Assembly: GCA_001816585.1 (NCBI GenBank)
Contig: MHCJ01000007.1
Location: 2,062-66,061 of the forward strand
DNA length: 64,000 nucleotides
Direction of reading: 5' to 3'
Origin: Candidatus Chisholmbacteria bacterium RIFCSPHIGHO2_01_FULL_52_32
GTDB lineage: Bacteria > Patescibacteriota > Microgenomatia > UBA1400 > Chisholmbacteraceae
Part shown: positions 12,656-55,300 of the stretch, piece by piece
How the letters are laid out: every line of letters starts with the position of its first letter
Position numbering within the stretch: position 1 is the stretch's first letter
Translations under genes and position numbers: made by a program
Notes under the pieces: model-generated
The model's input: the letters and a program-made list of their open reading frames with translations, nothing else
The model's database searches: none
Told to the model about the DNA's origin: nothing

Positions 12656-12697
12656 ACCACCTTGAAAGGTCTGACCTTTCAAGGTAATCTTCCCCAC

Positions 12698-12728
12698 AAA
12701 AAAACCGCCTCTTAAAGCGGTTTTCTTG
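12698..12728 (+). terminator. intrinsic terminator AACCGC-loop-GCGGTT plus T-run
   Basis: follows the stop of 11726..12655; preceded by an A-run, so possibly bidirectional. Confidence 0.55.
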
Positions 12729-12756
12729 TTTCTTGTTTCTTGTTACTCCTGACAGC

Positions 12757-12773
12757 TCAAGATGTGGTAGGAA
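12757..12773 (-). promoter_or_regulatory. 3' half of the pre-16S processing stem (TCAAGATGTGGTAGGAA; pairs with 14394..14410)
   Basis: 17-bp perfect inverted repeat flanking the 16S gene, the arrangement seen in RNase III processing stems. Confidence 0.6.
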
Positions 12774-12788
12774 AAACCGGTTTTTTTA
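12772..12788 (-). terminator. palindromic terminator AAAAACCGGTTTTTTT downstream of the 16S 3' end
   Basis: GC-cored palindrome flanked by A and T runs, about 45 nt after the 16S 3' end. Confidence 0.5.
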
Positions 12789-12828
12789 CAAGACACCGGC
12801 AAACCTTGCGTGAGTGAAAAATATCTCC

Positions 12829-14345
<1,517 letters not shown>

Positions 14346-14393
14346 AAATTTGACGCAGTCAAATCCGCCAACTGGCGGACAGACCACGTCTGA

Positions 14394-14574: not shown

Positions 14575-15906
14575 TTAATTCTTCTCGGATGAATCTTTTG
14601 ATACTTGCTGCTCAACGATAATGCCGCCTCCCAAGCATTCATCTCCGAGATAAAACACCGCTGCTTGCCCTGGAGCGATTCCCCGCTGGGGCTCAGCAAG
14701 TTCCACAAACAACTTTGAATTTTTCACTTTTAACTTTGAACTTATCAGCTCTCCTCCGTGTCTGATTCGCACCTGTAACCCTTTCATGACTGTTAATTCT
14801 TCATTCTTGATTCCGTTGATGAAATGAAGGTCGGCTACCTGAAATTTATCGCGGAATGTTTCTGCTCCAAATCCGACAATCAGCTGATTCCGAACAACAT
14901 TTTTACCCACCACATAGAATGGCGGTATCGCATGTCTCAACTTGTCACTTGTTACTTGTACCTTGTTGCTGATACTGAACCCATGCCTCTGTCCGATCGT
15001 GTAGAACCAAACACCTTTGTGCTTTCCAATAACATCCCCATCGGTATCGACCACATCACCGGTCTTCTCGTTGATTCTGCGCCGTAAAAACTCGCCGACA
15101 TCGACTTCTCCGACAAAACAAATCCCGACCGAGTCTGGTTTATCCGCAGTCAATAACCTACGTCTCTTCGCCTCTCGCCGAACCTGTTTTTTTGTCAGAT
15201 GTCCGACCGGAAACAAAACGTGAGCCAACTGCTCCTGCATTAGCGGGTAGAGGAAATAACTCTGATCTTTCTTGGCATCAATTCCCTGTAAAAGATGATA
15301 CATTCCGATTCCATCTCGGTTGTGGTGAGCGGGGAGACGAACAAATTTGCGCTGGTCACCCAGACCAGGCATATCGCCTGGAAAGACTTCCGGTTTGGCT
15401 CGAAGTTTCGAACGCAATCGTTGGTGACCAAGCAAATTTCCGTTCGGCGACCTCAGCTCACCGAATCCTATCCTCGCGTAATGCCCTGTTGCTACATAAT
15501 CAAACCCGTGGTTCAAAGCCCATCGCAAGAAGAGCCCGAATTTAATCTCCCGATTGCACACCACATCCGGATTCGGCGTCCGTCCAGCTTCGTACTCGCG
15601 ATAAAAATACTCGATGACCTTCTTCCGGTATTCCTTCTGAAAATCCAGCACCTGAAATGGAATCCCAAGCCCAAGGGCTACGCTCAATGCATCCTTCCGA
15701 TCCTCCGGAGCCCGGCACCCCGGTTCATTCCAACACTCAAGGAAAACACCGGTAACATCATAGCCTCGCTCCACAAGCAAAGCCGCCGAAACCGAGGAAT
15801 CTACCCCGCCTGACATACCCACAGCGACACGTCTGCCCTGAACCGTTCCGCCAACTGGCGGATCTGGTTCACGGGCTACTCGAGGGAATTTCTGCCTCTT
15901 CTCCAT
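14575..15906 (-). CDS. mnmA: tRNA-specific 2-thiouridylase MnmA
   Basis: 443 aa; PP-loop SGGVDSS; conserved NPDVVCN and GHYAR motifs; about 30-aa N-terminal extension. Confidence 0.9.
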   Translation of the reverse strand: MEKRQKFPRVAREPDPPVGGTVQGRRVAVGMSGGVDSSVSAALLVERGYDVTGVFLECWNEPGCRAPEDRKDALSVALGLGIPFQVLDFQKEYRKKVIEYFYREYEAGRTPNPDVVCNREIKFGLFLRWALNHGFDYVATGHYARIGFGELRSPNGNLLGHQRLRSKLRAKPEVFPGDMPGLGDQRKFVRLPAHHNRDGIGMYHLLQGIDAKKDQSYFLYPLMQEQLAHVLFPVGHLTKKQVRREAKRRRLLTADKPDSVGICFVGEVDVGEFLRRRINEKTGDVVDTDGDVIGKHKGVWFYTIGQRHGFSISNKVQVTSDKLRHAIPPFYVVGKNVVRNQLIVGFGAETFRDKFQVADLHFINGIKNEELTVMKGLQVRIRHGGELISSKLKVKNSKLFVELAEPQRGIAPGQAAVFYLGDECLGGGIIVEQQVSKDSSEKN

Positions 15907-17921: not shown

Positions 17922-19382
17922 TCAAGGTAGGTCAACTGGCTGCAAATCCAACCGAAAGTAAACTTCATTCACTATCGTCCTCGCCCATTCGTTGAGTCGA
18001 TTGTGCGTTCCGTCCAAAATCGTTCGTCCGAACACCAATTTTCCGCAGCGAAGGTGTGGCTTCACCAAATCTCCCCTCCTTGGCACCCCATCGGTAAGCA
18101 CAAACTCATCAGGATGTTGTATATCAAGCGGTGTCACTCCCTCCCTCACCCACTCGACTCCAAACTTTTCACTTTTCACTTTAAACTTTGAACTTAACTT
18201 ATAGACTCCCGCCTTCAAATCACCTTTCACTTCTGCCCACCGTTCCGGATCCTTATTATGTAAGACCAAATGCGCCCCCTCCTTCGGCGCCTTCAACGAT
18301 CGATCAACCGCTGCAAAGTCCATCGTATAGTTGATGTCCAAGAACTCTAAAAGCTGGAACACATCAAATGGGATTTCCCCCTTCTGGAGCTGAAGAAACG
18401 AATAGACCGGGAACGCTCCGGTGTAGCGCGGGTTGATCTCATTGGGATAAACCTTCCCTGACTTAGCATCAATCATCAAATCCACCCCAAAAACACCTTT
18501 GTACCCCTGATGCGCCATCGCTTCACCCAGGTTTCTGGCAATCCGCTCCGCCCCTTTCTGTATCGCTGAAGAATAATGTCGGAAGCTCCAATCGTGTCCC
18601 CGCCAGATTCCCCGCCGCTCCCTCAGATTCACAAGCTCCGGAACATCAAGAATCTGCGTCTGCACCAAACCAGTTAACACTCCGTACCGAGTTACACAAC
18701 CCGTTATCGACCCAGAAATCCCATCAATGAAGCGACTGACGTTCACCAACTGCGTTCGAGAAAGATCCAATCGCCCTTTTGCATCCTCCAAAAATGTCCG
18801 AAAGTCAGAAATATCATTGATAAAATACGTTCCTTTTCCTCCACCTTCCGAGAAACTCGTAAGCTGAAACACCAACTGCCTCCCTAGCCTCTTCCTTAGC
18901 CTCCGGTAGTCATCCTCGGTAAATTTCTCAACCTCCCACTGCTCCCCCGGGATTGGAGCCAGTCCGAGTCGTCTAACCAGTGTAAAGAACGCATCCTTAT
19001 CCTCAAACTGATCCCGGATCGCCCGCGGATTGGCAAGAAGCAGCCATCCTTGCTCCTGACAAAACCGATCCACCCACTCCGTATGCTTATAGGAAAAGAC
19101 GGCTATCTTCCCCAGGCTTTGCAAATACCGTAAAACCCCGGGATGCTTAAGAATGGCCTGCGTGTTGAGTTTTTCAACCTCATTTGGAGAGAAGTCGCGC
19201 TGCACTGCTCGGATCGGGCAAAACCGCTTCAGGAAAGAGAGATCGCTCCCCCACTTGTAGCAGACAATCTCGTAGTTTGATGTCACCAAAGCCGGAGAAA
19301 TCCTCCCAAACGCCGTCAGTCCAATTCCCACAATATGGCGCCCTGCCCCATCAAGAAGCTTACAGTAATCCTGAAATTCCAT
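17922..19382 (-). CDS. large ATP-grasp superfamily enzyme (pre-ATP-grasp plus ATP-grasp core)
   Basis: 486 aa; the segment GVFGVDLMIDAKSGKVYPNEINPRYTG is typical of the ATP-grasp C-terminal subdomain. Confidence 0.7.
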   Translation of the reverse strand: MEFQDYCKLLDGAGRHIVGIGLTAFGRISPALVTSNYEIVCYKWGSDLSFLKRFCPIRAVQRDFSPNEVEKLNTQAILKHPGVLRYLQSLGKIAVFSYKHTEWVDRFCQEQGWLLLANPRAIRDQFEDKDAFFTLVRRLGLAPIPGEQWEVEKFTEDDYRRLRKRLGRQLVFQLTSFSEGGGKGTYFINDISDFRTFLEDAKGRLDLSRTQLVNVSRFIDGISGSITGCVTRYGVLTGLVQTQILDVPELVNLRERRGIWRGHDWSFRHYSSAIQKGAERIARNLGEAMAHQGYKGVFGVDLMIDAKSGKVYPNEINPRYTGAFPVYSFLQLQKGEIPFDVFQLLEFLDINYTMDFAAVDRSLKAPKEGAHLVLHNKDPERWAEVKGDLKAGVYKLSSKFKVKSEKFGVEWVREGVTPLDIQHPDEFVLTDGVPRRGDLVKPHLRCGKLVFGRTILDGTHNRLNEWARTIVNEVYFRLDLQPVDLP

Positions 19383-22544: not shown

Positions 22545-22688
22545 GAGACCAGGCAATTGGCACCGGACACTCACAACCTATTTCTCTCTCATGTTACAAT
22601 CTCCCCGCAAGAGTAGCAGTCATCCATTTGCTATTTGCCATTAGCCATAAGCTATACGCTATAAGCTATCTGCAATCTGCATATTCCT

Positions 22689-30063: not shown

Positions 30064-31197
30064 CAATTGCCTCCTCGTAAATCCGAAACAGCTTCTTTTG
30101 CATAACAGATAGACTGAAATGCGCAAGGTAGCGCCGCCGAGCCGCCTGCCCCAACCTCCCTCTTAAGTCCGCGTCCAAAACTAGCCGTTCAAGTGCCTCC
30201 GCCAAATCGCCCACGCTTCCAGGCCGCACCAACAACCCCGTCTGTCCATCAACGACCATCTCGGGCAACGCTCCCAGCCGTGAGGCCACCACAGGAATCC
30301 CAAAGCTCATCGCCTCACAAACTACCAGGCCATACCCTTCAGCCTTCGGCGGAACATGGACCAAGATATCCGCCGCCGGGTAAAACTCCGAAACCAGCCG
30401 GTCATAGGAAACAAAATCATGCTGCGTAATCCCGTAAGATTTGTCATTTGTCATTTGTAATTTGTAATTTTTAGGCACCGGTCCCAAAATCGTCAACCGC
30501 ACCGTATCTCCCAACATCTCTCTCACTTTCCGGTATGCCTCCCACAAAATCATTCCCCCCTTCCGCTCAAACCACACTCCGGCAAAAAGTAGTCGAACCG
30601 GACCAACCTTTCGAACCGAAGGTTCCGCTCGATCCGATAGGCCCGGATAGATAACCGCGATTTTTGCGGGATCAGCTCCCAGTGCAATATGCTCCTGTTT
30701 GGCAAACTCACTCATCACCAAGAGTTTCGAGAAATTGCCCAGGGAAAGATCCTGGTCATAAACGGAAAGGAGGGAATGCATCGCCCGCCGCAATCCGTAC
30801 GTAGCCTCGATGCGAAGCCTTCCCTGACCAAAGTATTGAGAAAGCCCCCAACGATTGGGGATACTGTCCCCCATGACCACGGGAATGTGTCGCAAAGACC
30901 CCGAAAGCCGAAGTGTATACGCATGGCAGTGGACAAGATCGAACTTCCCCAAAATCTCAACATCAACGGTTCCTGCCGAAAGGGGCAGGATACGAAACTT
31001 CACCAGCGTCCGAAGAAAAGCGTGGAAGGAGCCATACCGAACCTCCCCCTTCTTAAGCGCGTCCGTATGGTGCACGTACGTCACGCCGGGTGGCGGATTG
31101 GCAAGCAGCGTCCGGGTATAGGTATTCTCCCCACCCATCAGAAACTTGAGGTTCAAAGGAACATCTGGATCGAGCGGTGAAATCAAAAGCACCCGCA
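30056..31197 (-). CDS. GT4 (group 1) glycosyltransferase
   Basis: about 380 aa; EGYGLVVCEAMSFGIPVVA motif; start assigned to ATG MRVLLISPL, with an alternative GTG at 31213; carries an internal heptamer tract. Confidence 0.85.
30439..30473. repeat. in-frame heptamer tract (ATTTGTC)x2 (ATTTGTA)x2 ATTTTTA inside the GT4 coding sequence
   Basis: 5 consecutive 7-mers encode the NYKLQMTNDK linker; the unit length is not divisible by 3. Confidence 0.8.
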
Positions 31198-31223: not shown

Positions 31224-31272
31224 GCTATTCGCTATTCGCTATTCGCTATTCGCTATTCGCTATTCGCTATTC
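31224..31272. repeat. perfect heptamer tandem repeat (GCTATTC)x7 in the divergent intergenic or 5' region
   Basis: 7 perfect copies plus degenerate CTCTGCT flank copies; lies 10-30 bp upstream of the GT4 start codon on the minus strand and about 80 bp upstream of the rmlD-like gene. Confidence 0.9.
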
Positions 31273-31351
31273 GCTTTCAATCATATCCTATCAGACCAAC
31301 CAATAATCGTCTTTCTTGTCATACCCAGGGAAAGTATGCTACCCTGCCGCT

Positions 31352-32254: not shown

Positions 32255-32308
32255 ATTGTTAAATTGCTGTAGTGAAAAAAACAATAGAACAATACAACAA
32301 TAAAACAG
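32252..32308. promoter_or_regulatory. operator-like motif pair TTAAATTGTTAAATTG ... AACAATAGAACAAT
   Basis: same bipartite motif recurs at 38426..38497; directly upstream of the GTG start of the 32316 gene. Confidence 0.45.
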
Positions 32309-32315
32309 TCAGACG

Positions 32316-33347
32316 GTGAAGAAACAGTTCATTGCGAACAAAAGAGCTGAGGTTGAGTTTCGCACTCGGCTTCAAGAGGGTGCGTACGTAAGCCGCGAGC
32401 CGAGCGGCAATGAACTCCTCTCCGAACTCACGAAACGGGTAGAAAAAGCAAGAATCATCTTCCGTGCGCACGAACAGGAAACCAGCTTTTCTCCATTCCT
32501 TGAGATCGGGGCCGAGCGCGGCCAGCGTTCCATGCTTCTTGCGTCGGAATTCCGCGCCCAAGGATTCATGCTCGATCTCTCCCTTGACAGCCTACGGGAA
32601 GCCGAAGCGCTGCGCCGCCCCCTGAAGCTCAATAAAATCCCGCAAAGCGTCGTAGCCGATGCCTACAACCTTCCTTTTCCAAACAATTCGTTTGCCTTCA
32701 TCATTGCATTCCAGACCATCCACCACTTTCCTGATCCCGAACCTATCCTCCGGGAAGTCAATCGGGTCCTTGCCCCCGGAGGAGTATTTATCCTCGACGA
32801 AGAACCGATTCGCCAAAGCTTCAACGTGCGCCTTTGGCGAAGGCCGACCATACTTCGCTGGTGGGAAAAGATACTTAAAGCAACTATCCTCCTCCACTTC
32901 CTCTCCGAAATCGGAAAAAGCGAAACCGATGCCGGCATTATCGAGACATCATTCAGTCTTCCTACTTGGGAAAAGGCATTGAACGTCTTCGAAACAGCAA
33001 AAGCCGCCCTCACCGTCTTCCCATTCGGACCAACCGAGACAATATCCAAAACCGGTCAAGAAAAATGGCTTAATCCTTCATTGCCAACCCGAATCCTCCT
33101 CAAACTTCTTGGGGGGAACATCCAAGCCATCTGTACAAAATCTCCTAATAAGCGAAGAAGCTACAAGCTACAAGCTAAACATCTGCTCCCACCATTCGTC
33201 TGTCCTTCCTGCCCTCCCCACCCGCTATTGGAACAACGGCTGGGGAGCTGGTATTGCCTAACCTGCAAAAATACCTATCCTGTTAAAGACGGCATCCCGA
33301 TCCTGATTGAACGCACACTCCGCCAAACCCTATATCCTAATGCCTAA
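32316..33347 (+). CDS. class I SAM-dependent methyltransferase with a C-terminal Cys4 zinc-ribbon
   Basis: 343 aa; LEIGAERG motif I, LPFPNNSFAFI, LAPGGVFIL; C-terminal CPSC...CLTC. Confidence 0.8.
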   Translation: MKKQFIANKRAEVEFRTRLQEGAYVSREPSGNELLSELTKRVEKARIIFRAHEQETSFSPFLEIGAERGQRSMLLASEFRAQGFMLDLSLDSLREAEALRRPLKLNKIPQSVVADAYNLPFPNNSFAFIIAFQTIHHFPDPEPILREVNRVLAPGGVFILDEEPIRQSFNVRLWRRPTILRWWEKILKATILLHFLSEIGKSETDAGIIETSFSLPTWEKALNVFETAKAALTVFPFGPTETISKTGQEKWLNPSLPTRILLKLLGGNIQAICTKSPNKRRSYKLQAKHLLPPFVCPSCPPHPLLEQRLGSWYCLTCKNTYPVKDGIPILIERTLRQTLYPNA

Positions 33348-33366
33348 ACCCTACATCCTAATGCCT
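33325..33366. repeat. 21-bp tandem duplication AAACCCTAYATCCTAATGCCT x2 spanning the stop of one gene and the start of the next
   Basis: two copies with one mismatch; each copy contains an in-frame ATG for the downstream GT2. Confidence 0.85.
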
Positions 33367-34230: not shown

Positions 34231-36090
34231 ATGAATATTGCTATCGTCTCCGCAGGTTTAAGCACCCATTCTGGCCTCCGCGCCCCAATTGAGCTTGCCA
34301 AGGCCCTCAAAGCCCTCGGCCACCAAATCACGTTCTATGCTCTCTCCAAAGGAAAAGACAACCCGGCAGTCAACGATCTTCGAAGAACAGGGATTCGCGT
34401 TTCCGTCGTAAACGCCCGGTCTCTGCTTACACAAATCCTAATCCTGAAAAAAAAGCTTGAGGCTGGCAATCATGACATTATTTCGGCACACTGTTTCGTA
34501 AGCCAGCTCCTGGCTGCGCGCCTCACAGGTATCCCGGTCGTTTGGACCTACTACGGCACCCAGTTAAACGTCCTTCGCGAACACGTGTTCCCAACCAAGA
34601 ATACGGTGATTGACACAATCGATAGCCTCCTCAACCTGACTATCCGCCTCAAAACGCAAGCAATGGCTTGGCTGGCCGACGAAATCCTGTCGATTAGCAA
34701 TAGCGCAAAGCAGGAGCTTAAAAAGCTCTACGGCCGCAAACCCTTTGCCACCGTCCCCCTCGGCTCCGCCCCACCATCCTTCACAACAAAACCGCTTTCT
34801 CTCTCTCTACGCCCTACGCCCTACGCCCTAAGCCCTAAAATCATTCTCTCCGTCAGCCGTATCACTCCCTACAAAGGCTTTCATCTCCTCATCAGAGTGG
34901 TAAACAGGCTTTCAAAACGCATTCCCGATCTGAAACTTGTGATCGTCGGCTCTGCCCCCCTTCCCCGGTATCTCTCCTACCTTAAAAAAATCTCCGGTTC
35001 CTCTGTGGAAATTATCGTCAATCCAAGTGACGCCAAACTGGTCACGCTTTTCCGACAAGCCAAAATCTACGCGACGGCGGATGAGTACCTGTTCTACGGA
35101 CTCCCGATTTGGGAAGCCTCATCATTTGGCATCCCCTCTGTTGCACTCAAACGCAAAGCCGCTTCCGAAGCGATCGTTCACGGAAAAACCGGCTTTCTTG
35201 CAAAAAACGAGGCTGATCTCGAAGAGTACCTCGAACGGTTACTTACGAATCCAAAACTCTGTCAGCGTATGGGGGAAAAAGCCAGAGAACTCGCTTCCCA
35301 TCGGACCTGGGGAAAAACCGCCCGAAGCTACGAAGGGATACTCCGACAAGTCCTGACCAAACTCTATCTCCCCCTGATCCCGACGGGCTTCTATAGCCTA
35401 ATGAAAAATCTTCAAACGCAAAGAAACCTCACCCTTGCCGACCTCGGATCAGATACGGGAATGAATCTTAAGATTCTGGGAAAACTTGATCTCCTCCGCC
35501 CCATCGCCAAGTTGATAGCTGTCGACATCGATACCAAAAATCTCAAACCCCTCGCCAGAGAAGATCCCAAAGTCCAAATACTCCAAGCGAACCTCACCAG
35601 CCTAAGAAGGGTCCCGAAAAACTCCGTTAACACCATAATCTGTACACAAGTCATTGAACACATTGAAAATCAACAAAAAGCGCTCTCGGAAATTGCCAGG
35701 GTTCTCAAACCGGGAGGAAAGCTGTTCTTAAGTTCGGTTGCAAAAAAATGGTATGGCCTCTACTGGCACAACAATAAAAAGGGAAAAATTGTCGTCCACC
35801 CAGACCACGTCCATGAATTCAGCAGTGTTGAGGAGTTTATTGACCTGATTCAGTCATCAGGACTAACCGTGATCAGATCTGAGCAACTTCCGGGTAGGTT
35901 TCCGCTTTTTGATTACTTCCTTCGTGCGATAAACCTTCTTGCAGGAAAACCAACTTCAGCCGAACACCGGGATTTCTACCTAAAACATCCTCGCCTCATC
36001 CGCTGGCACAAACATCTTTCCTTCCTTCCCATCCCCGGATACTCGATTGTTGAGGCACTCGCTCAAAAACCAATGAGGGAACAGAAATAA
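34231..36090 (+). CDS. GT4 glycosyltransferase fused to a C-terminal class I SAM methyltransferase
   Basis: 619 aa; GT4 region residues 1-370, then the MTase motif DLGSDTGMN...VLKPGGKLFL; contains a (CTACGCC)x3 tract. Confidence 0.8.
   Translation: MNIAIVSAGLSTHSGLRAPIELAKALKALGHQITFYALSKGKDNPAVNDLRRTGIRVSVVNARSLLTQILILKKKLEAGNHDIISAHCFVSQLLAARLTGIPVVWTYYGTQLNVLREHVFPTKNTVIDTIDSLLNLTIRLKTQAMAWLADEILSISNSAKQELKKLYGRKPFATVPLGSAPPSFTTKPLSLSLRPTPYALSPKIILSVSRITPYKGFHLLIRVVNRLSKRIPDLKLVIVGSAPLPRYLSYLKKISGSSVEIIVNPSDAKLVTLFRQAKIYATADEYLFYGLPIWEASSFGIPSVALKRKAASEAIVHGKTGFLAKNEADLEEYLERLLTNPKLCQRMGEKARELASHRTWGKTARSYEGILRQVLTKLYLPLIPTGFYSLMKNLQTQRNLTLADLGSDTGMNLKILGKLDLLRPIAKLIAVDIDTKNLKPLAREDPKVQILQANLTSLRRVPKNSVNTIICTQVIEHIENQQKALSEIARVLKPGGKLFLSSVAKKWYGLYWHNNKKGKIVVHPDHVHEFSSVEEFIDLIQSSGLTVIRSEQLPGRFPLFDYFLRAINLLAGKPTSAEHRDFYLKHPRLIRWHKHLSFLPIPGYSIVEALAQKPMREQK
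34807..34841. repeat. heptamer tract (CTACGCC)x3 CTAAGCC CTAAAAT inside coding sequence
   Basis: encodes LRPTPYALSPK; the same TACGCCC unit recurs at 51036-51050 and 55281-55300. Confidence 0.8.
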
Positions 36091-37034: not shown

Positions 37035-38405
37035 ATGAAAGGAAAGCCCTTAACTACCATCATCCTTCTTGGCATATTCTTGAGAGTCATCTTCCTCTTC
37101 CACCACAATATCTGGCTTGATGAATCCATAAGCATCCTCATCTCACGGCTCGCAATCCCCAGGCTCCTCTCAGTCGCCAGCTACGACAACAACCCACCGC
37201 TCTTCTATCTCTTACTCCACTTCTGGATGAAGGTTTCCCAAAATCCCATTTGGCTTCGCACGCTATCTCTCCTCTTCTCGACAGCGACGATTCCCGCAGT
37301 CTTCCTCCTTGCACGCTCTCTTGCAAATCAGAAAACCGCGGTCCTTTCATCACTGCTCGTTGCGATCATGCCTGCGCAGCTCTACTATTCCGGCGAGATC
37401 CGCTTCTACTCTCTTCTAATCCTCCAATCCGCTCTCCTTTTCTCAATCGCTCTCAGAAAGAACAAACCCCAGGGAGTTCCGCTTACCGCCCTTCTCACCG
37501 CAACTATCCTTACCCACTATACCGGTATCCTAGGAATTGCTTTGGCATTCTTCCTGATATGGAAAAAGTCAAAGCGACACATTTGGGTATGGATAACAAG
37601 TGCTGCTCTCGCTCTTCTCCTAAGCGCTCCTTGGATAACGCTAACGCTCTCAAAGCCACATCCGACACCCTGGACTCCGAATCCCCTCTTATCTGTTGCG
37701 TTCATGCCGATTGCGGCGACCACCGGTCTGGTGGGAATTGCTCCGCCCTCTACGCTCTCCCTTCTCCATGCCGCCCTCCGCTTCCTGATCGTCATCGTGG
37801 GCTTACTCTTTCTTTTGGCATTGGGAGCTCAACTTCGAACACCAGCGTCCAAGCTCACCGCCATAGTCGCAGTCATACTGGTCCTTTTGGCCGCAAGCCT
37901 CTTCCCCATCCTCTCGCCCCGCCTCATTCTTCCCTTCACACCCCTGCTCTATGTCTTCGCTGCAACATTCCTTGAGAAAAGTGCCTCCCTTCGCCTGGTA
38001 TTTCTTACCGCCACGACGGCCATAAGCGTCGCAAGTTTCCTCGTCCCAATGCGAGGGCCGCTGATCCAAACCGCCCTCGGAGCGTACCGAAACTCCGCCT
38101 TCCCCACCTACCACACCGCCCTGACCACGTTCTATCCTACTTCGGTTCTCCGAACAAACTCGGATATCTACCTCGGCCCCCGCACCTTTCCCACTCAAAT
38201 GACCGACGTAATCGGTGGCACACCGAAACCCATTGAATCAGTCGCCGAGAACCCCACATTTACACTCATTATCGATGAAAAAAATACCGATGAAAAAACG
38301 AAAAATGCCATAAAAGAACAACTTAAGTTTACACACGAGATGACAAAGCGATTTGATGCTGACTCAATCACCGTCCAAATGTATGAAAGAAAATCCAACC
38401 CCTAA
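37035..38405 (+). CDS. GT-C membrane glycosyltransferase, GT39/ArnT/PMT-like
   Basis: 456 aa; about 11 TM helices; N-terminal IWLDESISI ... NNPPLFY motif region typical of PMT_2/ArnT-like enzymes. Confidence 0.7.
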   Translation: MKGKPLTTIILLGIFLRVIFLFHHNIWLDESISILISRLAIPRLLSVASYDNNPPLFYLLLHFWMKVSQNPIWLRTLSLLFSTATIPAVFLLARSLANQKTAVLSSLLVAIMPAQLYYSGEIRFYSLLILQSALLFSIALRKNKPQGVPLTALLTATILTHYTGILGIALAFFLIWKKSKRHIWVWITSAALALLLSAPWITLTLSKPHPTPWTPNPLLSVAFMPIAATTGLVGIAPPSTLSLLHAALRFLIVIVGLLFLLALGAQLRTPASKLTAIVAVILVLLAASLFPILSPRLILPFTPLLYVFAATFLEKSASLRLVFLTATTAISVASFLVPMRGPLIQTALGAYRNSAFPTYHTALTTFYPTSVLRTNSDIYLGPRTFPTQMTDVIGGTPKPIESVAENPTFTLIIDEKNTDEKTKNAIKEQLKFTHEMTKRFDADSITVQMYERKSNP

Positions 38406-38425
38406 TTTAAGAATTGTTGTATTGC

Positions 38426-38497
38426 TAAATTGTTAAATTGTTAAAACAATAGAACAATGAGCGAGCGCTAGTGAGCGATAACAATAGAACAATGAAC
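38426..38497. promoter_or_regulatory. operator-like motif cluster: TAAATTGTTAAATTGTTAAA, then AACAATAGAACAATGA twice (19 nt apart), the second overlapping the start codon
   Basis: shares the 14-mer AACAATAGAACAAT with 32279-32292. Confidence 0.45.
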
Positions 38498-42027: not shown

Positions 42028-42720
42028 TCAAAAGGATTGATAAGGCTTATTCCCAAAGATATAGAGCGTCCCGCAGAGCTTTTTAAAGGGAAAAAACAAC
42101 GGGCCGCGAAACACCGGGAAATTCCACTGTTCAAGTGTACGGCGAACTCCGGGAAGGGGCGGAAGCCCGTGAAGGATGGCTCCTTGAACACGTAAATCAC
42201 GAAATCCAGCCTCGAAAAGACGTTTCGCCCAGTAGCGGGATGCACGAACGTTCACATGCGTAGGGTCATCAGGAAAAATCCTCGTCGTCACCGATCGTAG
42301 CCAACCCTGGTGGTTTGGCGTCGTGATGAACAGGACGCCGCCTGGCCGGAGCACACGAAAGGCTTCGGAAAAAAGAAACATCGGAGAATGAAGATGTTCA
42401 ACAACATCAAAAATTGTTATTGCATCAAACCAATCATTTTTAAATGGAAGCCGTTGGCGAGCCACGTCTACCTTCTTAAGGACACCGTGTACTCGCCTTC
42501 TGGCTTGAGCCAGTGCGTATCCGGAAATATCAACTCCAGAGACTTTAGCCCCCCTCTTTTGCACAGAAGATAGAAAGTCCCCAAAGCCGCACCCGACATC
42601 TAACACGCGTCGCAAAGAAGCAACCTTTTCAAACAGGATCTCCGCACGGGCTTTGGAGATGAGTTCCCCCTCTCTCGATGCGTTATAAATCCGCTCAAAA
42701 TATTCCCGACCATAGTTCAT
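42028..42720 (-). CDS. class I SAM-dependent methyltransferase
   Basis: 230 aa; VLDVGCGFGDF motif I, DVVEHL, LRPGGVLFITTPN. Confidence 0.85.
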   Translation of the reverse strand: MNYGREYFERIYNASREGELISKARAEILFEKVASLRRVLDVGCGFGDFLSSVQKRGAKVSGVDISGYALAQARRRVHGVLKKVDVARQRLPFKNDWFDAITIFDVVEHLHSPMFLFSEAFRVLRPGGVLFITTPNHQGWLRSVTTRIFPDDPTHVNVRASRYWAKRLFEAGFRDLRVQGAILHGLPPLPGVRRTLEQWNFPVFRGPLFFPFKKLCGTLYIFGNKPYQSF

Positions 42721-42813
42721 AGGGTATAGGGTATAGGGTATAGGAATTAGGGTTTAGGAATTAGAAATTTGATGTCATTCGTACTGTAATTTGTTATTTG
42801 TAATTTGAAATTT
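42721..42813. repeat. two heptamer tracts: (AGGGTAT)x3 plus 4 degenerate AGGNNTT units, then (GTAATTT/GTTATTT/GTAATTT/GAAATTT)
   Basis: begins at the nucleotide after the ATG of the methyltransferase (minus strand), so it occupies the RBS and promoter region. Confidence 0.85.
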
Positions 42814-42834
42814 GTCTCCCCCTCACCATCCTTC

Positions 42835-45798
42835 TTACTCCTCCTCCCTCTCCCACCACCGTCCTACATGCTTCAGAAGAACATTCCAAATCCTTCTGAC
42901 CAGCGCTCCGAAAACTCTACCATTAAACAGAAATTTATCCAAAAGGATGATCCCGATCACGGCGGAAGCCGCAATCTCAAGCCAAGTCAAAAAGGCCCCG
43001 CGGAACCGAAAATCAACGACCATGGGCTTGCCTTCAAAATCCGGAGGGATCCTTGCCCACATTACGCCTGGATATCCGAGTCCCGTCCGCCAAATCGTCA
43101 GGCCCATTCCCTTCCCCTCCGAAGTCAAACGTGCCGACCACCCGGGAAATCGTGACTCTTTAAACAGAACGCCGCGTGTTCCGTCTCCCGAGACCCGGCG
43201 ATGCGAAGCAGAAACAAACGATGCATCAAACTCCGGACTCTCCGTAGCCTCCGAAAAGGACTCCGGGAGGACAATCCGAAGCAGCGTTTTCAAAAGCTCC
43301 CCTTCCTGGAGGTTACGGTTGCGTTCAAGGTGTGCCGCAAGGTTCAAGCCCGACCAAACAGCGGTTCCCGACCCAACCTGAACGGTAGCAATCACCGGCT
43401 TCCCTGAGAGCCGTAGTAGTACTGAGGCTTTATCGTCAATATCACTATCCTCCGCATAGGAAACGTTCCACGGTCCGCCATCATAGATGAGCGGAGCAAA
43501 TTCCCCGAACGCTATCCCGGAGAGGAGAGGATCAGCCTCAACCTCCCAACGCATTCCTAAATCTCCCCGATGGGTCGCAACCATAGGAAAGAGTGCCGGG
43601 AGTTCCCTGGGAAATGTACCCGGGAGGGCTACTGATTCCGACTCTTTGACTTCTGCTCCCGTGTCAACCAGAACCGCTCCTCCGCCTTCCACAAACCGAA
43701 CCAGCATATTCCATGCCTTCCCATGATTTCGATAGTCATATCCGTAGAGGAAAACGGCGTCAAACTGGACAAGGTCGGATGGTCGCACCTGATCAAGGAA
43801 CTTTGGCCCCTTGACCGGAATAAGCTGACGGCTCGTCAACCCCAGCTGTGCCAGGGTTCTTATGAAAATCTCCCACCGTGGCTCATCACCGACGAACAGA
43901 ACCGAAGGCGCATTGGTCAGGGAGAGGATCGGCCCCACCAGGCTTTCTTGAATCTCAAGAAACCGCACCCAGTTCTGCATCGAAGGCTCGTATCGACCCC
44001 CCCTAATGTCTCCCGGTAGAGGCAAGCGGGCACCCTGCACTGCCCACTTTTCATCCCTGCCAGAGAACTCCGGGGTCGGCAGATACGAGGAGAATGTTGT
44101 CACGACGGATGAACCAGACCCATAGCTCTCCCCAGCCAGATATCGGATCGCATTCCAATCCAAAACAAACCGCGCCGCATTCTTGGACATCTCCACGGGA
44201 TAATCAAATTTTTCCACTGCGACATTATTGTCAAGCACTATATCCATCAGGAATATCCCCCATCGCTGTGCGTCCGTGATTGCCGGATCAATGTATCCGC
44301 GCGCCAGCGGCATATCGTAGTAGCTGTTGAACCAGATGTTGAAAATCTGATCTGCACTATAGAGCCGGTAATCCTTTGTTTGAACCGGAACCCAGGGGGG
44401 AACGGCCACCTTCGCAAAATCCTCCTGGTCTTTCCGGTCCACCACATTGGTTGTCCTCCCGGGAAAACCGGCCGAAAATACCGATTTGAAGTACAGCGAA
44501 TTGTCGAAATCCGAAAGATAGAGCCGTGAACCCAAAATCACAACCACACCTAAGAGAACGACATCCACACCCAAATCAATAACCTTCCGAAAGGCGGTGT
44601 CGGATCGCCCAACAACTGTTGAAAATACTTCCCCCCAACAGACGGAGGTAAAACACCCTATCAGGAGTGGCACCGGCCAAAACACGCGGTACCAACCTCC
44701 GTGGAAGATATCGATACCGATGGAATAGAGATATAAATAGCCGGTGGTATATCCAACCAGAAGGGTAACCCAAAGGATGGAAAAGACGGATGACCTCGAC
44801 ACTTGTCTCTTCACCATCACCCGGATGAAGGTAAAGCTAAAGTACACAAGCAAAAACACAACCACCCCCGCTCCGGCAATCAAAAAGAGCCAAGGATGGC
44901 TGTCGGTGTAGAAGTGGTAGATACGTGTGCGGTAAAACTCCCGCACTTCATCGGAGAGTGCTGGCCCCGGAGTTGCCTGGTAGGTCACCGGAATTTCTCC
45001 GGAAAGACCGGAGAGAATCTGGGCAGGCATCCGAACCAGCGCCGGGAGTCTCACGGCAGTCACCGGAAAACCGATGAAGAAAACCAATACCATGAACAAA
45101 ACCGTTTCAACAATCCTCTGCCGAAAACCCGATGCTTGCTCACGCGGAGCAGTCAGGAGCGAAATGATGGAAAGCGCAAACCCATAAGAAAGCGCCACCT
45201 GTGGATGCCCGTACTGCGAGACACCCAAGGCAAGGATTGCTCCGGCAAACCACCGTTTCTTCCCGGTCTGAAAGTACAGGACAAGGAGAAGCAATGTTAA
45301 AGGAAGAAACATCTGGGTCCCGAAGTAAGGAACGCTACCGCCCCAAATGAGAGCGCCGTAGAGGTTGACTGAATACGTTCCCAAAATCGCAAGGAAAAGC
45401 GCCAATCCCCGATTACGCGAAAGCCTGGCAAAAAGGAGATAGGAAAAGACAAGGAAAGCAAACGTCGTTACGAGCATCCAAAATTGAACCGCCCGAACGG
45501 CAGCAAGTTGGGAAAGGAACGGTAGCGCAGCGTAGAGATGAAGACTCGGGTAATCCAAAATCAAAGGCTCCCCGTTAAAAGCGATGTACTTCCACGACAG
45601 AGGAAGCGTGGCAAAATGCCGACCCAAATAAGCCACAAGGGTCGTCGTATTCAGAAGGTCAACCCCCCGAACCGGAATCGCCTCCCAGTACCACCGCGCC
45701 ACCGGCAGAAATGCCTGGTAGAGAACATAAAGAGCTGCAAGGTGAAGAAACAGCCCCACCAGCAGAATGAGGAAATTGACGATTCTTTTCGCCATCAC
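42835..45798 (-). CDS. large GT-C-like polytopic membrane protein (YfhO-like), paralog A; C-terminal tail GRWWEREEE
   Basis: 987 aa; about 13 N-terminal TM helices and a ~550-aa C-terminal soluble domain; collinear with 45932..48841. Confidence 0.8.
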   Translation of the reverse strand: MMAKRIVNFLILLVGLFLHLAALYVLYQAFLPVARWYWEAIPVRGVDLLNTTTLVAYLGRHFATLPLSWKYIAFNGEPLILDYPSLHLYAALPFLSQLAAVRAVQFWMLVTTFAFLVFSYLLFARLSRNRGLALFLAILGTYSVNLYGALIWGGSVPYFGTQMFLPLTLLLLVLYFQTGKKRWFAGAILALGVSQYGHPQVALSYGFALSIISLLTAPREQASGFRQRIVETVLFMVLVFFIGFPVTAVRLPALVRMPAQILSGLSGEIPVTYQATPGPALSDEVREFYRTRIYHFYTDSHPWLFLIAGAGVVVFLLVYFSFTFIRVMVKRQVSRSSVFSILWVTLLVGYTTGYLYLYSIGIDIFHGGWYRVFWPVPLLIGCFTSVCWGEVFSTVVGRSDTAFRKVIDLGVDVVLLGVVVILGSRLYLSDFDNSLYFKSVFSAGFPGRTTNVVDRKDQEDFAKVAVPPWVPVQTKDYRLYSADQIFNIWFNSYYDMPLARGYIDPAITDAQRWGIFLMDIVLDNNVAVEKFDYPVEMSKNAARFVLDWNAIRYLAGESYGSGSSVVTTFSSYLPTPEFSGRDEKWAVQGARLPLPGDIRGGRYEPSMQNWVRFLEIQESLVGPILSLTNAPSVLFVGDEPRWEIFIRTLAQLGLTSRQLIPVKGPKFLDQVRPSDLVQFDAVFLYGYDYRNHGKAWNMLVRFVEGGGAVLVDTGAEVKESESVALPGTFPRELPALFPMVATHRGDLGMRWEVEADPLLSGIAFGEFAPLIYDGGPWNVSYAEDSDIDDKASVLLRLSGKPVIATVQVGSGTAVWSGLNLAAHLERNRNLQEGELLKTLLRIVLPESFSEATESPEFDASFVSASHRRVSGDGTRGVLFKESRFPGWSARLTSEGKGMGLTIWRTGLGYPGVMWARIPPDFEGKPMVVDFRFRGAFLTWLEIAASAVIGIILLDKFLFNGRVFGALVRRIWNVLLKHVGRWWEREEE

Positions 45799-45931
45799 TA
45801 AGCCTTTTTAATTGCTATATTGTTACATTGTTCTACTGTTGGTAGATCAAAGATTGAGTGTTTTCAACAATATAACAGTGAAGCAATATAACAATATCTC
45901 TTTGTCTCCAATCCCTCCCTCTCCTACCTCC

Positions 45932-48841
45932 TCACTCCTCCTCTCTCTCCCACCACCGTCCGACGCGTGCAAGAACTCTTGAAAGAAGTTTCAGGACTCG
46001 CTTACCCACAAACCAGCCGTTGAACAGGGAAAGATCAACCAAGGTCAGACCCGCCACCCACGATAAAATCCAGGGAAGATACCACTGAAACCTCCCCCAG
46101 TAGGTAAATCGTGCTTCTACCGGTCCTTGCCCGCTCAGCGGAACGTACAGGTATCCCGGGTACGCCGGCCCGGCCGTATAGGCTTTCGCCGTTTTTCCGT
46201 TCACCGTCACCTGCCAGCCGGGATAGAACTGTTCCTTGAACAGGATGCCTCTTCCGCTCTGATCGGAGCGGAAAGAAACTGATCGGGAGCTTTCAAACCT
46301 CGGCTCCCCCGCCGAAATATCGGTCAGATTGAGAGGAACCAATTCGTCGAGAAGATTCACCAGGAGTCTGCTTTCCATAACGTTGGTATTGGCATGAACG
46401 TGGTAGGCAAGGTTCATCCCGCTCCAGAGAACAGTCCCCTCCCCCAAAGGATAACGCACCAGAACCGGCTTTCCTCTCTGAAACAACAGAACCTCTGCCT
46501 TTGCATCAACCTCCGAAACAGGATAGGAAAACTTCCACTCGCCATCCTCCCAAGTTGGCGGAGAAAATGCCTCAAAATCAACTCCCGAAAAGACAGGATC
46601 GGAGGACGCAGTAATTTCCCATTGTGAACCTAAGCCCTGACGTTGGGCATCTAAAAATGGGAAGAGTTCCGGAAGGTTGAGGCGCGCTGACTCCCGTGTT
46701 TCACTCCCGGTATCGATCAGAACCTTCCCGCCCGCTGAAACATACCGGGAAAGTGAGGAAAACGCCTTATCCCGATTCCTGTAACGGTAGTTGGCAAGGT
46801 AAACCACATCAAAGGATGACAAATCGCTTGTCGAGAAGCTGTCAACGGGCTTTTCCGAATATGCAGTAATCAGAAACCGCGAATGGATGTTGTTCATGGA
46901 CAGCGCTTTAATCAGAGCCTCATACGCCGGCCAATCGCACAGACAAAGAAGAGACGGGGCGTTTGAAACGGAGACTACCGGTGAGACCAGCTCATCCTTA
47001 ACTCGGAAGTACTCAAGATACTGCGGGATGTCCATAATTTCCGGTTTTCCTGAAGGCGTTTCATAGAGCCGGTACAATCCCACGGTCTTCGTCTGTGCCT
47101 GCTCCGCTATGGCACCCTCAAGAAAGGACGAAGGTCTCTTATTGTCCGAAATCGAAACATGCCCGCCTTCAAAGTAGCGGACGGCATTCCAATCGATGTA
47201 GTAAAGCGCCATATTTTTCGCCGTATCCACGGGATAATGGAAGTTCTCGACAAGCCCGTCGGCACCCAAAGCCTGATCGGTCAGGAAAATTTGCCCCATC
47301 CGATCGGTCCCGATCGGCGGATCGATATATCCCCGCACCAACGGCATATCAAAAAGCGCATTCCACCACACATTAACCTGGGCATCAGTCTCATATAATC
47401 GCCAGTTGCGGTCAAAAGGGTCAAGCCACGCCGGAACAAGATCCTTCTGAAGCCTCGTAAGATCCTCGTCTGAACGGATCAAGTTGATCGCTTCAGGATA
47501 TGCACTGGAAGGCGATGACTTTTCAGTCACAACCGCAAGCGTCTTTGCAAGGTCCACTGACTGGTACACCACTCCGAGCATACCCACAGACAGAACGCCC
47601 AGAGCCACGGAAGCGATTTTCCCAAAGGTCCGGGTAATCCTCGAAAACGTGTCCAATATGTAGCCGACGATTACGGCCAGAAGAAGGCCAAGACTTACCG
47701 GAAAATGCCAGAACGCCCGATACCATCCCTGTGACAGGAACGGAAAACCATAGCTATTGGCAAACACGTGCAGGATGGAATATCCGGCCAAGATTGCCCA
47801 CGGGACAATCCGAAGCACCTGTTTCTTTTCTTTATCCATGACGAGAGCGACGAGAAACACCGCCACGGCAAAACCGATTATGGCAAATATCCACGGATTG
47901 GTATCTGAAAAAAGAACCAGGAATCTGCTCTGTTCCCAGGCAGCTTGGGCGGAATCTTTCATTCCCGCCAGGCCACCCTCGCGAAATTGCGCTCCCGAAG
48001 AGGCGGCGCCAAAGGAGGTCAACAACCGTCCCTTGAGCGAAGCGATGAAAAGCCCGCTGAACAAGGAGGTCGTGACGCGGTTTGAGAGGATCGTAAGTCC
48101 CACAAGAAAGACCGCGAACTCCCCCAGACGCCCCTTGAGTCCGAGCGGCTGTTTCCGCCATCCCAGGAAGAGAAGGAGGGCCGCCGAAACCAAGACAAAC
48201 GTTCCCGCGTTCATCGCGTGCCCGAGAAATGCCAGCCCAACCAAAAATACGGACCCCCAGAACCAACCCCGACGGCCAGTCTCAAGATAACTGGATAACG
48301 TCCAAAGGCACAGTGGAAAAAACAGCTGATTGGCAAAATAGGGCAAACTCCCTCCCCAGGTCAACGACCCGTAGAGGTTAGGAGAAAAAGCCACCAGCAC
48401 GGCAATCACGACTGCAAACAGATGGTTTCTGCTTAATCGCTGGGCTGTAAGATAGGTAAACACAAGAAAGAGGAACAGACTGACAAGCATCCCGACCTTG
48501 ACCGAGGCAATCAGGGGCAACCAGCGCGCCAGGATGGAAATCGGATAATACCAGCCGATCGAAAAATCGGGATACAGGGGTGAACCCCCAAACCAAAAGG
48601 AGCGATATGCCCACGGGGGGAAATTGAAATTCTCTGCAAACATCCGCACATGGGTCACGGTATTGAAGAAATCAACACCAAGAATCGGTCGGAAATCAAA
48701 GTACCATGAAGCGATCGGCCAAACGGCCGCACCGAGAATGAGGATTGCAACCAGATGGAAAAAAATCCCTATGGCAGTCTTTATGACGGCAACAAGCTTC
48801 ACATGTTTCTCCCAATGCCATTCCGTTCGTCTCTCCCCCAT
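45932..48841 (-). CDS. large GT-C-like polytopic membrane protein (YfhO-like), paralog B; C-terminal tail GRWWEREEE
   Basis: 969 aa; same architecture and the same last 9 residues as paralog A. Confidence 0.8.
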   Translation of the reverse strand: MGERRTEWHWEKHVKLVAVIKTAIGIFFHLVAILILGAAVWPIASWYFDFRPILGVDFFNTVTHVRMFAENFNFPPWAYRSFWFGGSPLYPDFSIGWYYPISILARWLPLIASVKVGMLVSLFLFLVFTYLTAQRLSRNHLFAVVIAVLVAFSPNLYGSLTWGGSLPYFANQLFFPLCLWTLSSYLETGRRGWFWGSVFLVGLAFLGHAMNAGTFVLVSAALLLFLGWRKQPLGLKGRLGEFAVFLVGLTILSNRVTTSLFSGLFIASLKGRLLTSFGAASSGAQFREGGLAGMKDSAQAAWEQSRFLVLFSDTNPWIFAIIGFAVAVFLVALVMDKEKKQVLRIVPWAILAGYSILHVFANSYGFPFLSQGWYRAFWHFPVSLGLLLAVIVGYILDTFSRITRTFGKIASVALGVLSVGMLGVVYQSVDLAKTLAVVTEKSSPSSAYPEAINLIRSDEDLTRLQKDLVPAWLDPFDRNWRLYETDAQVNVWWNALFDMPLVRGYIDPPIGTDRMGQIFLTDQALGADGLVENFHYPVDTAKNMALYYIDWNAVRYFEGGHVSISDNKRPSSFLEGAIAEQAQTKTVGLYRLYETPSGKPEIMDIPQYLEYFRVKDELVSPVVSVSNAPSLLCLCDWPAYEALIKALSMNNIHSRFLITAYSEKPVDSFSTSDLSSFDVVYLANYRYRNRDKAFSSLSRYVSAGGKVLIDTGSETRESARLNLPELFPFLDAQRQGLGSQWEITASSDPVFSGVDFEAFSPPTWEDGEWKFSYPVSEVDAKAEVLLFQRGKPVLVRYPLGEGTVLWSGMNLAYHVHANTNVMESRLLVNLLDELVPLNLTDISAGEPRFESSRSVSFRSDQSGRGILFKEQFYPGWQVTVNGKTAKAYTAGPAYPGYLYVPLSGQGPVEARFTYWGRFQWYLPWILSWVAGLTLVDLSLFNGWFVGKRVLKLLSRVLARVGRWWEREEE

Positions 48842-50962: not shown

Positions 50963-50990
50963 GATCAGCCATGTATCTCACCGGGACTGC

Positions 50991-51065
50991 CCTCTCCTCT
51001 CCTCTCCTCTCCTCTCCTCTCCTCTCCGCTCCGCTCTACGCCCTACGCTCTTAGCCCTCTACCCT
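50991..51065. repeat. pentamer (CCTCT)x7, then CCGCT x2, then heptamers CTACGCC CTACGCT CTTAGCC CTCTACC in a convergent intergenic region
   Basis: perfect pentamer run; heptamers are of the same TACGCCC family as 34807 and 55281. Confidence 0.85.
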
Positions 51066-54485: not shown

Positions 54486-55216
54486 CTTCCCCGGATCGAA
54501 ACCCAAATTTCACTCAAGATGAGTGCCACAAACCGTAATCCCGTTGGTATCGATTTCGCTTTACTCTCTCCACCGATCCGCTCTCCCTCAATCGTCGGGA
54601 TCTCCGAAACCTTCATGCCTAAGCGCATTGCCCGAATAGACATCTGATACTCTACGGCATACCCTGTCGCGGAGAGCCGCATCCGTTCAAACGCTGCCTT
54701 CCGAATGGCACGGTACCCATTAATCGTGTCGGAAATAGAGCGACCGCTTCTGTTCCAAAGGATGTTTGCGACAAGGGTAAATGCTTTATTCGCCCAAGCC
54801 CGTGGTCGGAAGAGCTTGCTGTCTTCCTCATTGCGAGAACCCGGCAGAAATCTTGAGGCAATGACCATATCGTAGCCTTCCGCAAGTTTCGAGAGTAACC
54901 TCGGAATATCCGCCGGATCCTCGTTGCCATCGGGAGAGAAAAAAACCAGCAAGTCTCCCCTGGCAACAGACGCGGATAACCGAAATGCCTCTCCACGTCC
55001 TGGGTTTTCTTGGGGAACGATTCGAATGCCACGTTTTTTGACAAAATCAATGGTTCCATCATCGGACTTATAGTCAACCACAAAATGCTCATCCACCGCT
55101 TCAAACGGAATCCTCCCCACCAATGCCCGCATCCCCTCAATCTCATTACGGGTCAGAATAACTAGTGTAGTCTTGACCTTCTTCTTCCTCATATTTCCCT
55201 GCCACCTTCCGAGCAC
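54479..55216 (-). CDS. GT2 family glycosyltransferase
   Basis: 245 aa; LVILTRNE, DYKSDDGT, SPDGNED motifs. Confidence 0.8.
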   Translation of the reverse strand: MLGRWQGNMRKKKVKTTLVILTRNEIEGMRALVGRIPFEAVDEHFVVDYKSDDGTIDFVKKRGIRIVPQENPGRGEAFRLSASVARGDLLVFFSPDGNEDPADIPRLLSKLAEGYDMVIASRFLPGSRNEEDSKLFRPRAWANKAFTLVANILWNRSGRSISDTINGYRAIRKAAFERMRLSATGYAVEYQMSIRAMRLGMKVSEIPTIEGERIGGESKAKSIPTGLRFVALILSEIWVSIRGSY

Positions 55217-55236
55217 TCTCTATTCGTAAATCATAA

Positions 55237-55300
55237 ATCCTAAATCATAAATCACTCTCTACCCTCTGCTCTACGCGCTAAGCCCTACGCTCTTCCTGTA
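55237..55300. repeat. heptamer tract AAATCAT AAATCCT AAATCAT AAATCAC, followed by TACGC-type heptamers
   Basis: 20 bp upstream of the GT2 start on the minus strand; the downstream part encodes the SVGLSA C-terminus of the epimerase. Confidence 0.8.

Follow-up and report, generated by a model that had tools for sequence, protein, structure and literature searches.

Tandem heptanucleotide repeats are known from several bacterial lineages, and here we compare with them an array of seven-base units that directly abuts the start codon of a methyltransferase gene in Candidatus Chisholmbacteria bacterium RIFCSPHIGHO2_01_FULL_52_32, an uncultured groundwater member of the Microgenomates group within the Candidate Phyla Radiation (CPR). 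The analysis covered a 64,000-nucleotide stretch of contig MHCJ01000007.1, hereafter the window, in which the array region occupies positions 42721-42813. The STRR heptamers, which Mazel and colleagues are said to have reported in 1990, comprise a few defined units (CCCCAGT, TTGGTCA and CAACAGT) in heterocystous cyanobacteria; like the repeats treated here they are tandem intergenic heptanucleotides abundant in a lineage, and they differ from them in organism and in unit sequence. STRR heptamers are also mentioned for Calothrix (PMC4692102). More generally, heptamers are the most abundant class of long simple-sequence repeats (SSRs) in several bacteria and have been attributed to polymerase slippage (Mrazek 2007, as cited in PMC4679880 and PMC4692102). 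As those two papers relay it, the class shares with our locus its head-to-tail 7-nt units, the predominance of heptamers, an enrichment in non-coding DNA and whole-unit changes between strains. It was reported mainly from large, high-G+C genomes, whereas the present host is a CPR genome (longest contig ~1.16 Mb, ~51% G+C in the window) whose units are heterogeneous and are accompanied by 8-mers arranged in inverted blocks.

Three further systems come close in position. The GGGNATC and GGGGA(C/T)T repeats found in Xanthomonas and Nostoc (Rehm et al. 2015, PMC4692102) are likewise heptamers with a G3 tract that lie on the non-coding strand, less than 50 bp upstream of a gene and flanked by aligned open reading frames (ORFs); close relatives differ in how long the repeats are and in their sequence, and the repeats have no demonstrated function. 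The unit here is GGGTATA, with A in place of C; besides its three perfect copies there is a single distant G3 tract, and it is not spread window-wide. In marine Beggiatoaceae, some Cyanobacteria and Bacteroidetes, two to six TAACTGA heptamers end at or near a start codon, over the expected ribosome-binding site (RBS), Shine-Dalgarno (SD) motifs are rare and some copies fall inside ORFs (MacGregor 2015, PMC4679880), all of which recalls our locus; there, however, one unit dominates genome-wide and related heptamers are rarely repeated, whereas here TATACCC, TAATTCC and AAATTAC stand side by side and nearly every array has its own unit. Finally, the SSRs of Haemophilus influenzae hmw1A/hmw2A and an (AACAACC)n tract at a TonB-dependent receptor gene (Dawid et al. 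1999, in the account given by PMC2651432) are also 7-bp repeats of strain-variable number before the start of surface-related genes, but the hmw tracts, according to the same account, have 13-38 units ~70-105 bp upstream and a measured effect on expression, compared with three perfect units touching the ATG here. In sequence, the array matches none of the GGGNATC, TAACTGA and STRR families. Judged by its sequence it belongs to the known heptanucleotide long-SSR class, and the unusual part appears to be its CPR host; we found no literature report of such repeats in CPR/Patescibacteria. We think it moderately probable that slippage generated the array as a heptanucleotide SSR and that it serves passively as an intercistronic leader, poor in G, unstructured and lacking an SD motif.

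A spacer of 114 bp separates the GT-C-like gene (42835..45795, minus strand) from the S-adenosylmethionine (SAM)-dependent methyltransferase gene (42028..42720, minus strand), and 93 nt of it (42721-42813) hold seven plus four tandem heptamers. The initial annotation had placed heptamer arrays here, starting right after the methyltransferase start codon, and its description matches the sequence base for base, with one small departure. On the plus strand AGGGTAT is repeated three times directly beside the start codon (42721-42741) and is followed at 42742-42769 by AGGAATT, AGGGTTT, AGGAATT and AGAAATT, of which three fit the AGGNNTT pattern given for all four; the last, AGAAATT, does not strictly do so. 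Sixteen nucleotides without repeat (42770-42785, TGATGTCATTCGTACT) then precede GTAATTT, GTTATTT, GTAATTT and GAAATTT (42786-42813), and 21 non-repeat bases lead from there to the upstream gene's stop codon (TTA/TAA, 42835-42837).

Read in the mRNA sense, on the minus strand, the spacer opens right after that stop codon with its 21 non-repeat, G-rich bases (42814..42834) and continues with the distal heptamer block, AAATTTC AAATTAC AAATAAC AAATTAC (42786..42813; Tandem Repeats Finder, TRF, 42785-42815, period 7, 4.4 copies). After the 16-nt non-repeat linker (42770..42785), which contains all three G of the 93-nt array region, come the four degenerate heptamers AAATTTC TAATTCC TAAACCC TAATTCC (42742..42769; TRF rows 42741-42769 and 42720-42764) and then the perfect block, TATACCC three times followed by T-ATG (42719..42741). 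TRF reports this last, polymorphic part at 42719-42744 with period 7, 3.7 copies and 100% matches, the sense strand reading (TATACCC)x3 and then TAT|G, and the first two bases of the ATG are thus part of the last partial unit. The TRF scores of the spacer's array rows are 52, 62 and 48.

Chance or artefact as the origin of the array is ruled out by shuffle tests and by the identity of the sequence in 13 independent contigs: the spacer has a lag-7 identity of 0.60, a value that not one of 20,000 dinucleotide-preserving shuffles attained (shuffle maximum, 0.48). The features that define a long SSR are all found, namely head-to-tail units of 5-11 nt, a length beyond chance and whole-unit length change between strains.

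The last of these emerged from 24 near-identical metagenome contigs aligned to the window (~150 kb in total, >99% identity), which show five indel events, three of them a change by one whole unit in a perfect array. Thirteen of the 14 assembled sequences covering the site carry TATACCC three times and one (L009), from a slightly diverged strain with 20 single-nucleotide polymorphisms (SNPs) in 5 kb, carries it twice, the lost unit being aligned as 42719-42725. Another contig (L001) has one CCTCT unit fewer at 50991 and is otherwise identical across 20.7 kb, and a third (L101) has six GCTATTC units, one fewer, at 31224-31275 and no SNP in 2.6 kb. The same GCTATTC array contains an insertion of ~45 nt in L099, and 10 of the 12 differences that L098 shows over 5 kb fall within it, its units being replaced; three contigs end at or close to this array. 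One contig (L091) contributed 100 indel columns around N runs at 48166 and 37433, which we reject as a biological signal and regard as a scaffold-gap artefact. In that contig (10316-11738, window ~37035-38405) a PMT_2 gene is called as two pieces of 118 and 330 aa, with the break at an N run that looks like a scaffolding gap. Scans of metagenome contigs for allele counts gave no matches. The TATACCC polymorphism is real but modest at this site. Several of the samples that contain the locus we take to be Rifle-aquifer data.

The neighbours are those that the initial annotation had named, a minus-strand methyltransferase and, upstream of it, a GT-C paralogue. The former is a class I SAM-dependent methyltransferase of 230 aa (Pfam Methyltransf_23/11/25), present in GenBank as Candidatus Chisholmbacteria protein OGY17667.1; the exact proteins of the locus are deposited as proteins of Candidatus Chisholmbacteria metagenome-assembled genomes (OGY17667.1 / OGY20570.1). 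The latter is a GT-C-like membrane protein of 986 aa with a weak Pfam PTPS_related match and G-rich last codons (RWWEREEE), and it is paralogous to the product of the next gene, 45932..48841 (34% identity over the full length, E = 5e-169). The methyltransferase start codon (CAT/ATG, 42718-42720) is the first start codon following an in-frame stop, and the N-terminus that it specifies (M-x-Y-G-x-E-Y-F) aligns with those of 17 homologues of 38-58% identity. Because the ATG coincides with these N-termini, the array abuts the true start of the gene, and a mis-annotated start codon is ruled out by the same alignment. The methyltransferase lies within a long glycosylation cluster of GT4, GT2, GT-C, methyltransferase, epimerase and flippase genes. 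Among GTDB species representatives no close relative of the locus was found, the best match having 37% identity.

Relatives with methyltransferases of 44-58% identity preserve the pairing of a ~1000-aa GT-C gene with the methyltransferase gene, and their spacers differ. One spacer (L092) has 54 bp and no array; a second (L093) has 16 bp, with 4.7 copies of AATATTA running over the ATG; a third (L094) carries the heptamer arrays ATTTTCC x6 and AATGGAC x4 on either side of an inserted gene; and a fourth (L095), of ~96 bp, holds two mutually inverted 8-mer arrays. The gene inserted in L094 belongs to the 23S_rRNA_IVP family, and the arrays flanking it (2393-2434 and 2857-2888) are mutually inverted. 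Arrays with unrelated units at the same place in relatives fit recurrent local generation better than a conserved element. Since the 16-bp spacer of L093 has no room for a promoter, the GT-C/methyltransferase pair is probably co-transcribed, and the spacer would then be an intercistronic segment rather than a promoter.

Within the repeats themselves there is little that resembles a conventional initiation region. Applying the criterion of PMC4679880 (a run of any four bases from AGGAGGT whose end lies 4-13 nt upstream of the start), we found no SD motif in the spacer's repeats, nor was a sigma-70-like promoter found in 42721-42834 or a terminator after the stop codon of the upstream GT-C-like gene. 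The annotation had held that the array makes up the entire RBS and promoter region. All sequence directly 5' of the start codon is indeed repeats, but with no sigma-70-like promoter found in it and the gene pair kept together in relatives, the segment is more likely intercistronic. SD-like motifs precede 12 of the 46 genes in the window and three of the 26 in the glycosylation cluster, whereas the 3' tail of the 16S rRNA is normal (CCUCC); SD-less initiation thus appears to be the rule in this window. Six of the nine genes in a GC-rich block at ~3.4-11.3 kb (56-60% G+C) have an SD-like motif, and this block may be foreign DNA. At two genes, mnmA (start at 15906, minus strand) and the gene starting at 15974 (plus strand), TATAAT is followed by exactly 6 nt and ATG, a leaderless geometry. 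We considered the TATACC hexamers of the array as a leaderless promoter and rejected them, because they end 2, 9 and 16 nt before the ATG and do not reproduce the TATAAT-N6-ATG geometry.

The predicted structure of the leader is equally plain. Of 200 shuffles, 198 are more structured than the spacer's sense RNA (z = +2.4), whose centroid is fully open; for the plus strand z is +1.4. A hairpin or attenuator in the spacer can be discarded, since the sense RNA folds more weakly than its shuffles, unlike the spacers with inverted 8-mer arrays discussed below. Searches for known RNA families at Rfam gathering thresholds returned only the 16S rRNA and a tRNA in the window, and around the spacer only a meaningless miRNA match at E<=1. 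In partition-function calculations, the results of which depend on the context chosen, the energy to open positions -18..+12 is predicted at 9.3, 8.3, 6.3 and 5.1 kcal/mol for 0, 2, 3 and 8 units when only the spacer is folded, and at 24, 15.8, 11.7 and 5.5 kcal/mol once the fold also takes in the upstream ORF's G-rich last codons. The trend appears to be compositional, not specific. Coupling by unmasking, in which the G-rich upstream tail would pair with the C-rich units, was also rejected: The duplex energy was no better than with shuffled partners (202/500 and 150/500).

Across the window the array is one of many. TRF returns 19 period-7 rows in the 64 kb, compared with 1.3 in Markov-3 and block shuffles and with 2.95 per 64 kb in a 1.3-Mb sample drawn from 80 unrelated genomes, whose dominant periods are 9, 12 and 6; periods 14 and 21 are likewise in excess within the window. 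Between 12.6 and 63.3 kb there are 21 spacers of 40 bp or more, and by a hand count from TRF rows and the gene map 10 of them contain arrays with units of 5, 7 or 8 bases; the array-bearing spacers include convergent ones without any start codon (12656-12832 and 50963-51050). Arrays also adjoin housekeeping genes, such as those for 16S rRNA and MnmA. Nearly every array has a unit sequence of its own; an (ACAARTN)n type, by exception, recurs in the distal block of our spacer (42789) and in arrays inside two genes (14940-14966 and 30439-30472), all on the minus strand, for which a pattern search gave 10 matches compared with 1.13 expected.

Like the array at the methyltransferase, several others lie close to starts. 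One at 22624-22686 stops 2 nt before the ATG at 22689, and another at 55227-55254 stops 10 nt short of the GTG start at 55216. Among perfect heptamer arrays the longest, GCTATTC x7.4 at 31224-31275, occupies the divergent spacer between a GT4 gene (corrected start 31198) and an RmlD gene (start 31352), ~25 nt from the GT4 start. A fourth array, at 33325-33366, runs across the ATG at 33361 and is a 21-bp tandem duplication (heptamers AAACCCT ACATCCT AATGCCT) over the stop codon of 32316..33347 and the ATG of the next gene, whose start codon, because of this duplication, sits in a copy of the preceding gene's last codons. The two convergent spacers contain, respectively, TTTCTTG x3.3 at 12722-12744, which makes up the T-tract of a terminator-like hairpin downstream of the 16S rRNA gene, and a CCTCT x9.2 pentamer array at 50991-51036, which is followed by CGCTCTA/CGCCCTA units and lies between two convergent genes.

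Arrays also occur in frame inside coding regions, in mnmA, an ATP-grasp gene, two GT4 genes and a methyltransferase gene. Degenerate in-frame arrays (14711-14743, 14940-14967, 18162-18195, 30439-30470 and 33158-33177) encode Lys/Ser/Leu-rich stretches such as ISSKLKVKNSKL and KNYKLQMTNDKS, and the stretch encoded in mnmA does not appear to be an insertion relative to E. coli MnmA. CTACGCC x4.4 (3.4 perfect copies) at 34807-34837 lies inside the ORF of a 619-aa GT4-methyltransferase fusion (34231..36090) and encodes part of the linker between two GT4 domains (aa 193-203, LRPTPYALSPK). Loss or gain of one unit in this tract would shift the reading frame; no variant was seen in the eight contigs that cover it. 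The spacers with 8-mer arrays (32255-32315, 38406-38470, 45796-45931 and L095 1344-1421) have ATTGTT cores followed by inverted AACAAT/AGCAAT 8-mer arrays, and they give long imperfect hairpins (z = -1.9 to -2.8).

Set against this background, the explanation that we hold moderately probable runs as follows. Replication slippage would have created the array and would keep it in flux, in a host genome that appears generally rich in 7- and 8-base tandem arrays, of which this would be one. It takes up the greater part of the 114-bp, presumably intercistronic, spacer within the glycosylation cluster, and the resulting sense-strand leader would be A/U/C-rich, G-poor, weakly structured as predicted and free of an SD motif. 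The methyltransferase would probably be translated from this leader without SD pairing, as most genes here appear to be. The number of units would then have at most a modest quantitative effect and would not act as a switch; a graded effect on expression is possible, with weak support from the folding trend.

Several observations weigh against this explanation. The perfect units number just three, a figure common to 13 of 14 sequences, and the instability of the site is therefore modest. Of the four orthologous loci, three have arrays in the corresponding spacer, which selection for something that arrays provide, and not neutral slippage, could explain. The near-absence of G from the sense strand is specific to this array and not found in the other start-proximal arrays (22624, 31224 and 55227); a purely neutral origin does not explain the scarcity of G. 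The genome was sampled over 73 kb, and the 9 kb past the window end contain no period-7 array; moreover, co-transcription and the position of the 5' end are both features that we infer.

The initial annotation had proposed that unit number may control translation initiation, and this idea can be extended to a contingency locus or rheostat, in which slippage in the number of TATACCC units alters methyltransferase expression through leader accessibility, leader length or the spacing of an unrecognized promoter, the outcome being heritable heterogeneity in surface-glycan modification. Natural variation in unit number, two in L009 and three in 13 sequences, speaks for the proposal, as do the contact of the array with the start codon and the predicted decrease in opening energy as units are added; the gene, furthermore, belongs to a large glycosylation cluster, and such clusters are classical targets of SSR phase variation. 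Precedents reported in PMC2651432 are the expression-modulating heptanucleotide SSRs upstream of H. influenzae hmw1A/hmw2A and (AACAACC)1-7 located 13 bp upstream of a TonB-dependent receptor gene. However, three perfect units are short for a fast switch when the hmw tracts have 13-38, and a single allele accounts for nearly all sequences. No SD motif or promoter hexamers lie in or beside the array, and the repeat therefore has no SD for unit number to disturb; nor do gains or losses affect the ATG-proximal bases, because the perfect units abut the ATG. The array lies outside the ORF and leaves frame, promoter spacing and RBS unaffected, which departs from the structure of an SSR phase-variation switch. 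The folding trend is a context-dependent thermodynamic prediction, and the G-rich tail pairs with the C-rich units no better than it does with shuffled sequence. A device dedicated to start codons is also at odds with the arrays found in convergent spacers and inside coding regions; since equivalent arrays occur in convergent spacers and by housekeeping genes (16S rRNA, mnmA), there is no specific tie of arrays to surface genes. Overall, we regard a contingency locus as unlikely, if still worth considering. A broader form of the idea, that 7- and 8-base arrays are a used feature in this CPR lineage, building the SD-less leaders and spacers of the glycosylation cluster while slippage tunes or diversifies expression between cells, is in our estimate improbable; it could cite the 2<->3 change in TATACCC, the 6<->7 change in GCTATTC between the divergent GT4 and RmlD genes and, in the GT4-methyltransferase fusion, the perfect in-frame CTACGCC tract.

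The remaining explanations ask what the units themselves might be read as. Proteins such as S1, cold-shock or CsrA-like proteins might recognize the mRNA units as an array of binding sites and recruit or block ribosomes, which would suit a position like that of the Beggiatoaceae TAACTGA repeats, where heptamers end at the start over the expected RBS without an SD (PMC4679880), and would suit the other arrays that end within ~25 nt of a start (22624-22686, 31224-31275, 33325-33366 and 55227-55254). Yet unit sequences differ between arrays, between orthologous spacers and even between strains at one locus (L098), leaving no single motif for one protein to read, and arrays are also found far from any start codon; we consider such binding very unlikely. 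Much the same low probability, or a shade less, attaches to a quadruplex-type repeat, in which a G-quadruplex (G4) on the plus (template) strand, or an i-motif on the C-rich strand, would affect transcription of the spacer and unit number would set the availability of tracts. The candidate, (AGGGTAT)3...AGGGTTT on the plus strand with four G3 tracts, generalized as d[(AGGGTAT)nAGGAATTAGGG], has a unit, GGGTATA, close to GGGNATC, and it lies between aligned ORFs, on the non-coding strand and less than 50 bp upstream of an ORF, the reported preferred position (PMC4692102). The permissive pattern (G3 N1-12)3 G3 matches 42722-42752, one of only two plus-strand matches in the window, and the 2-unit allele of L009 loses the fourth G3 tract. 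Against this, the loops would be 4, 4 and 11 nt, and the ViennaRNA quadruplex model puts a G4 into the minimum free energy structure only from four perfect units and not at the observed three, so that a G-quadruplex at the present length is rejected as not predicted. The window's other heptamer arrays are not G-rich, and AGGGTATAGGGTAT has its exact match at this locus only, with two further sites at 2 mismatches, hence there is no family of AGGGTAT-type units elsewhere in the 64 kb; the function of the Xanthomonas and Nostoc repeats is, moreover, itself unestablished (PMC4692102). Least probable of all, and in our view highly improbable, is that the arrays descend as copies from a short mobile or gene-converting element and not from local slippage. 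The (ACAARTN)n arrays at 14940, 30439 and 42789, all on the minus strand, the mutually inverted arrays around the inserted gene of L094 and the insertion inside an array in L099 would accord with dispersal, but most arrays have unique units, and no terminal inverted repeats or associated transposase were found. The arrays also absorb local features such as a start codon (42719-42720, L093 and the duplication at 33325-33366), and this incorporation points to local duplication.

Two observations concern the window as a whole. GC skew is negative in every 2-kb bin from 1 to 64000 (down to -0.29), irrespective of gene orientation. The 16S rRNA gene is complete (12833-14347, minus strand) and has no adjoining 23S gene; it presumably matches the EUB338-III probe variant.

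By itself, this variable heptanucleotide repeat in a 5' leader is ordinary, if neat. What makes it noteworthy is its carrier, a small-genome member of the CPR, whereas long SSRs with units of 5-11 nt have been tied to large, GC-rich genomes. The locus also offers a natural and already polymorphic test case for SD-independent translation in uncultured organisms. If the arrays were indeed a used feature of this lineage, they would be the first system akin to a contingency locus to be described from the Candidate Phyla Radiation. CPR cells live attached to hosts, and if copy number tunes the expression of the glycosylation cluster, these host-attached cells could vary their surface.

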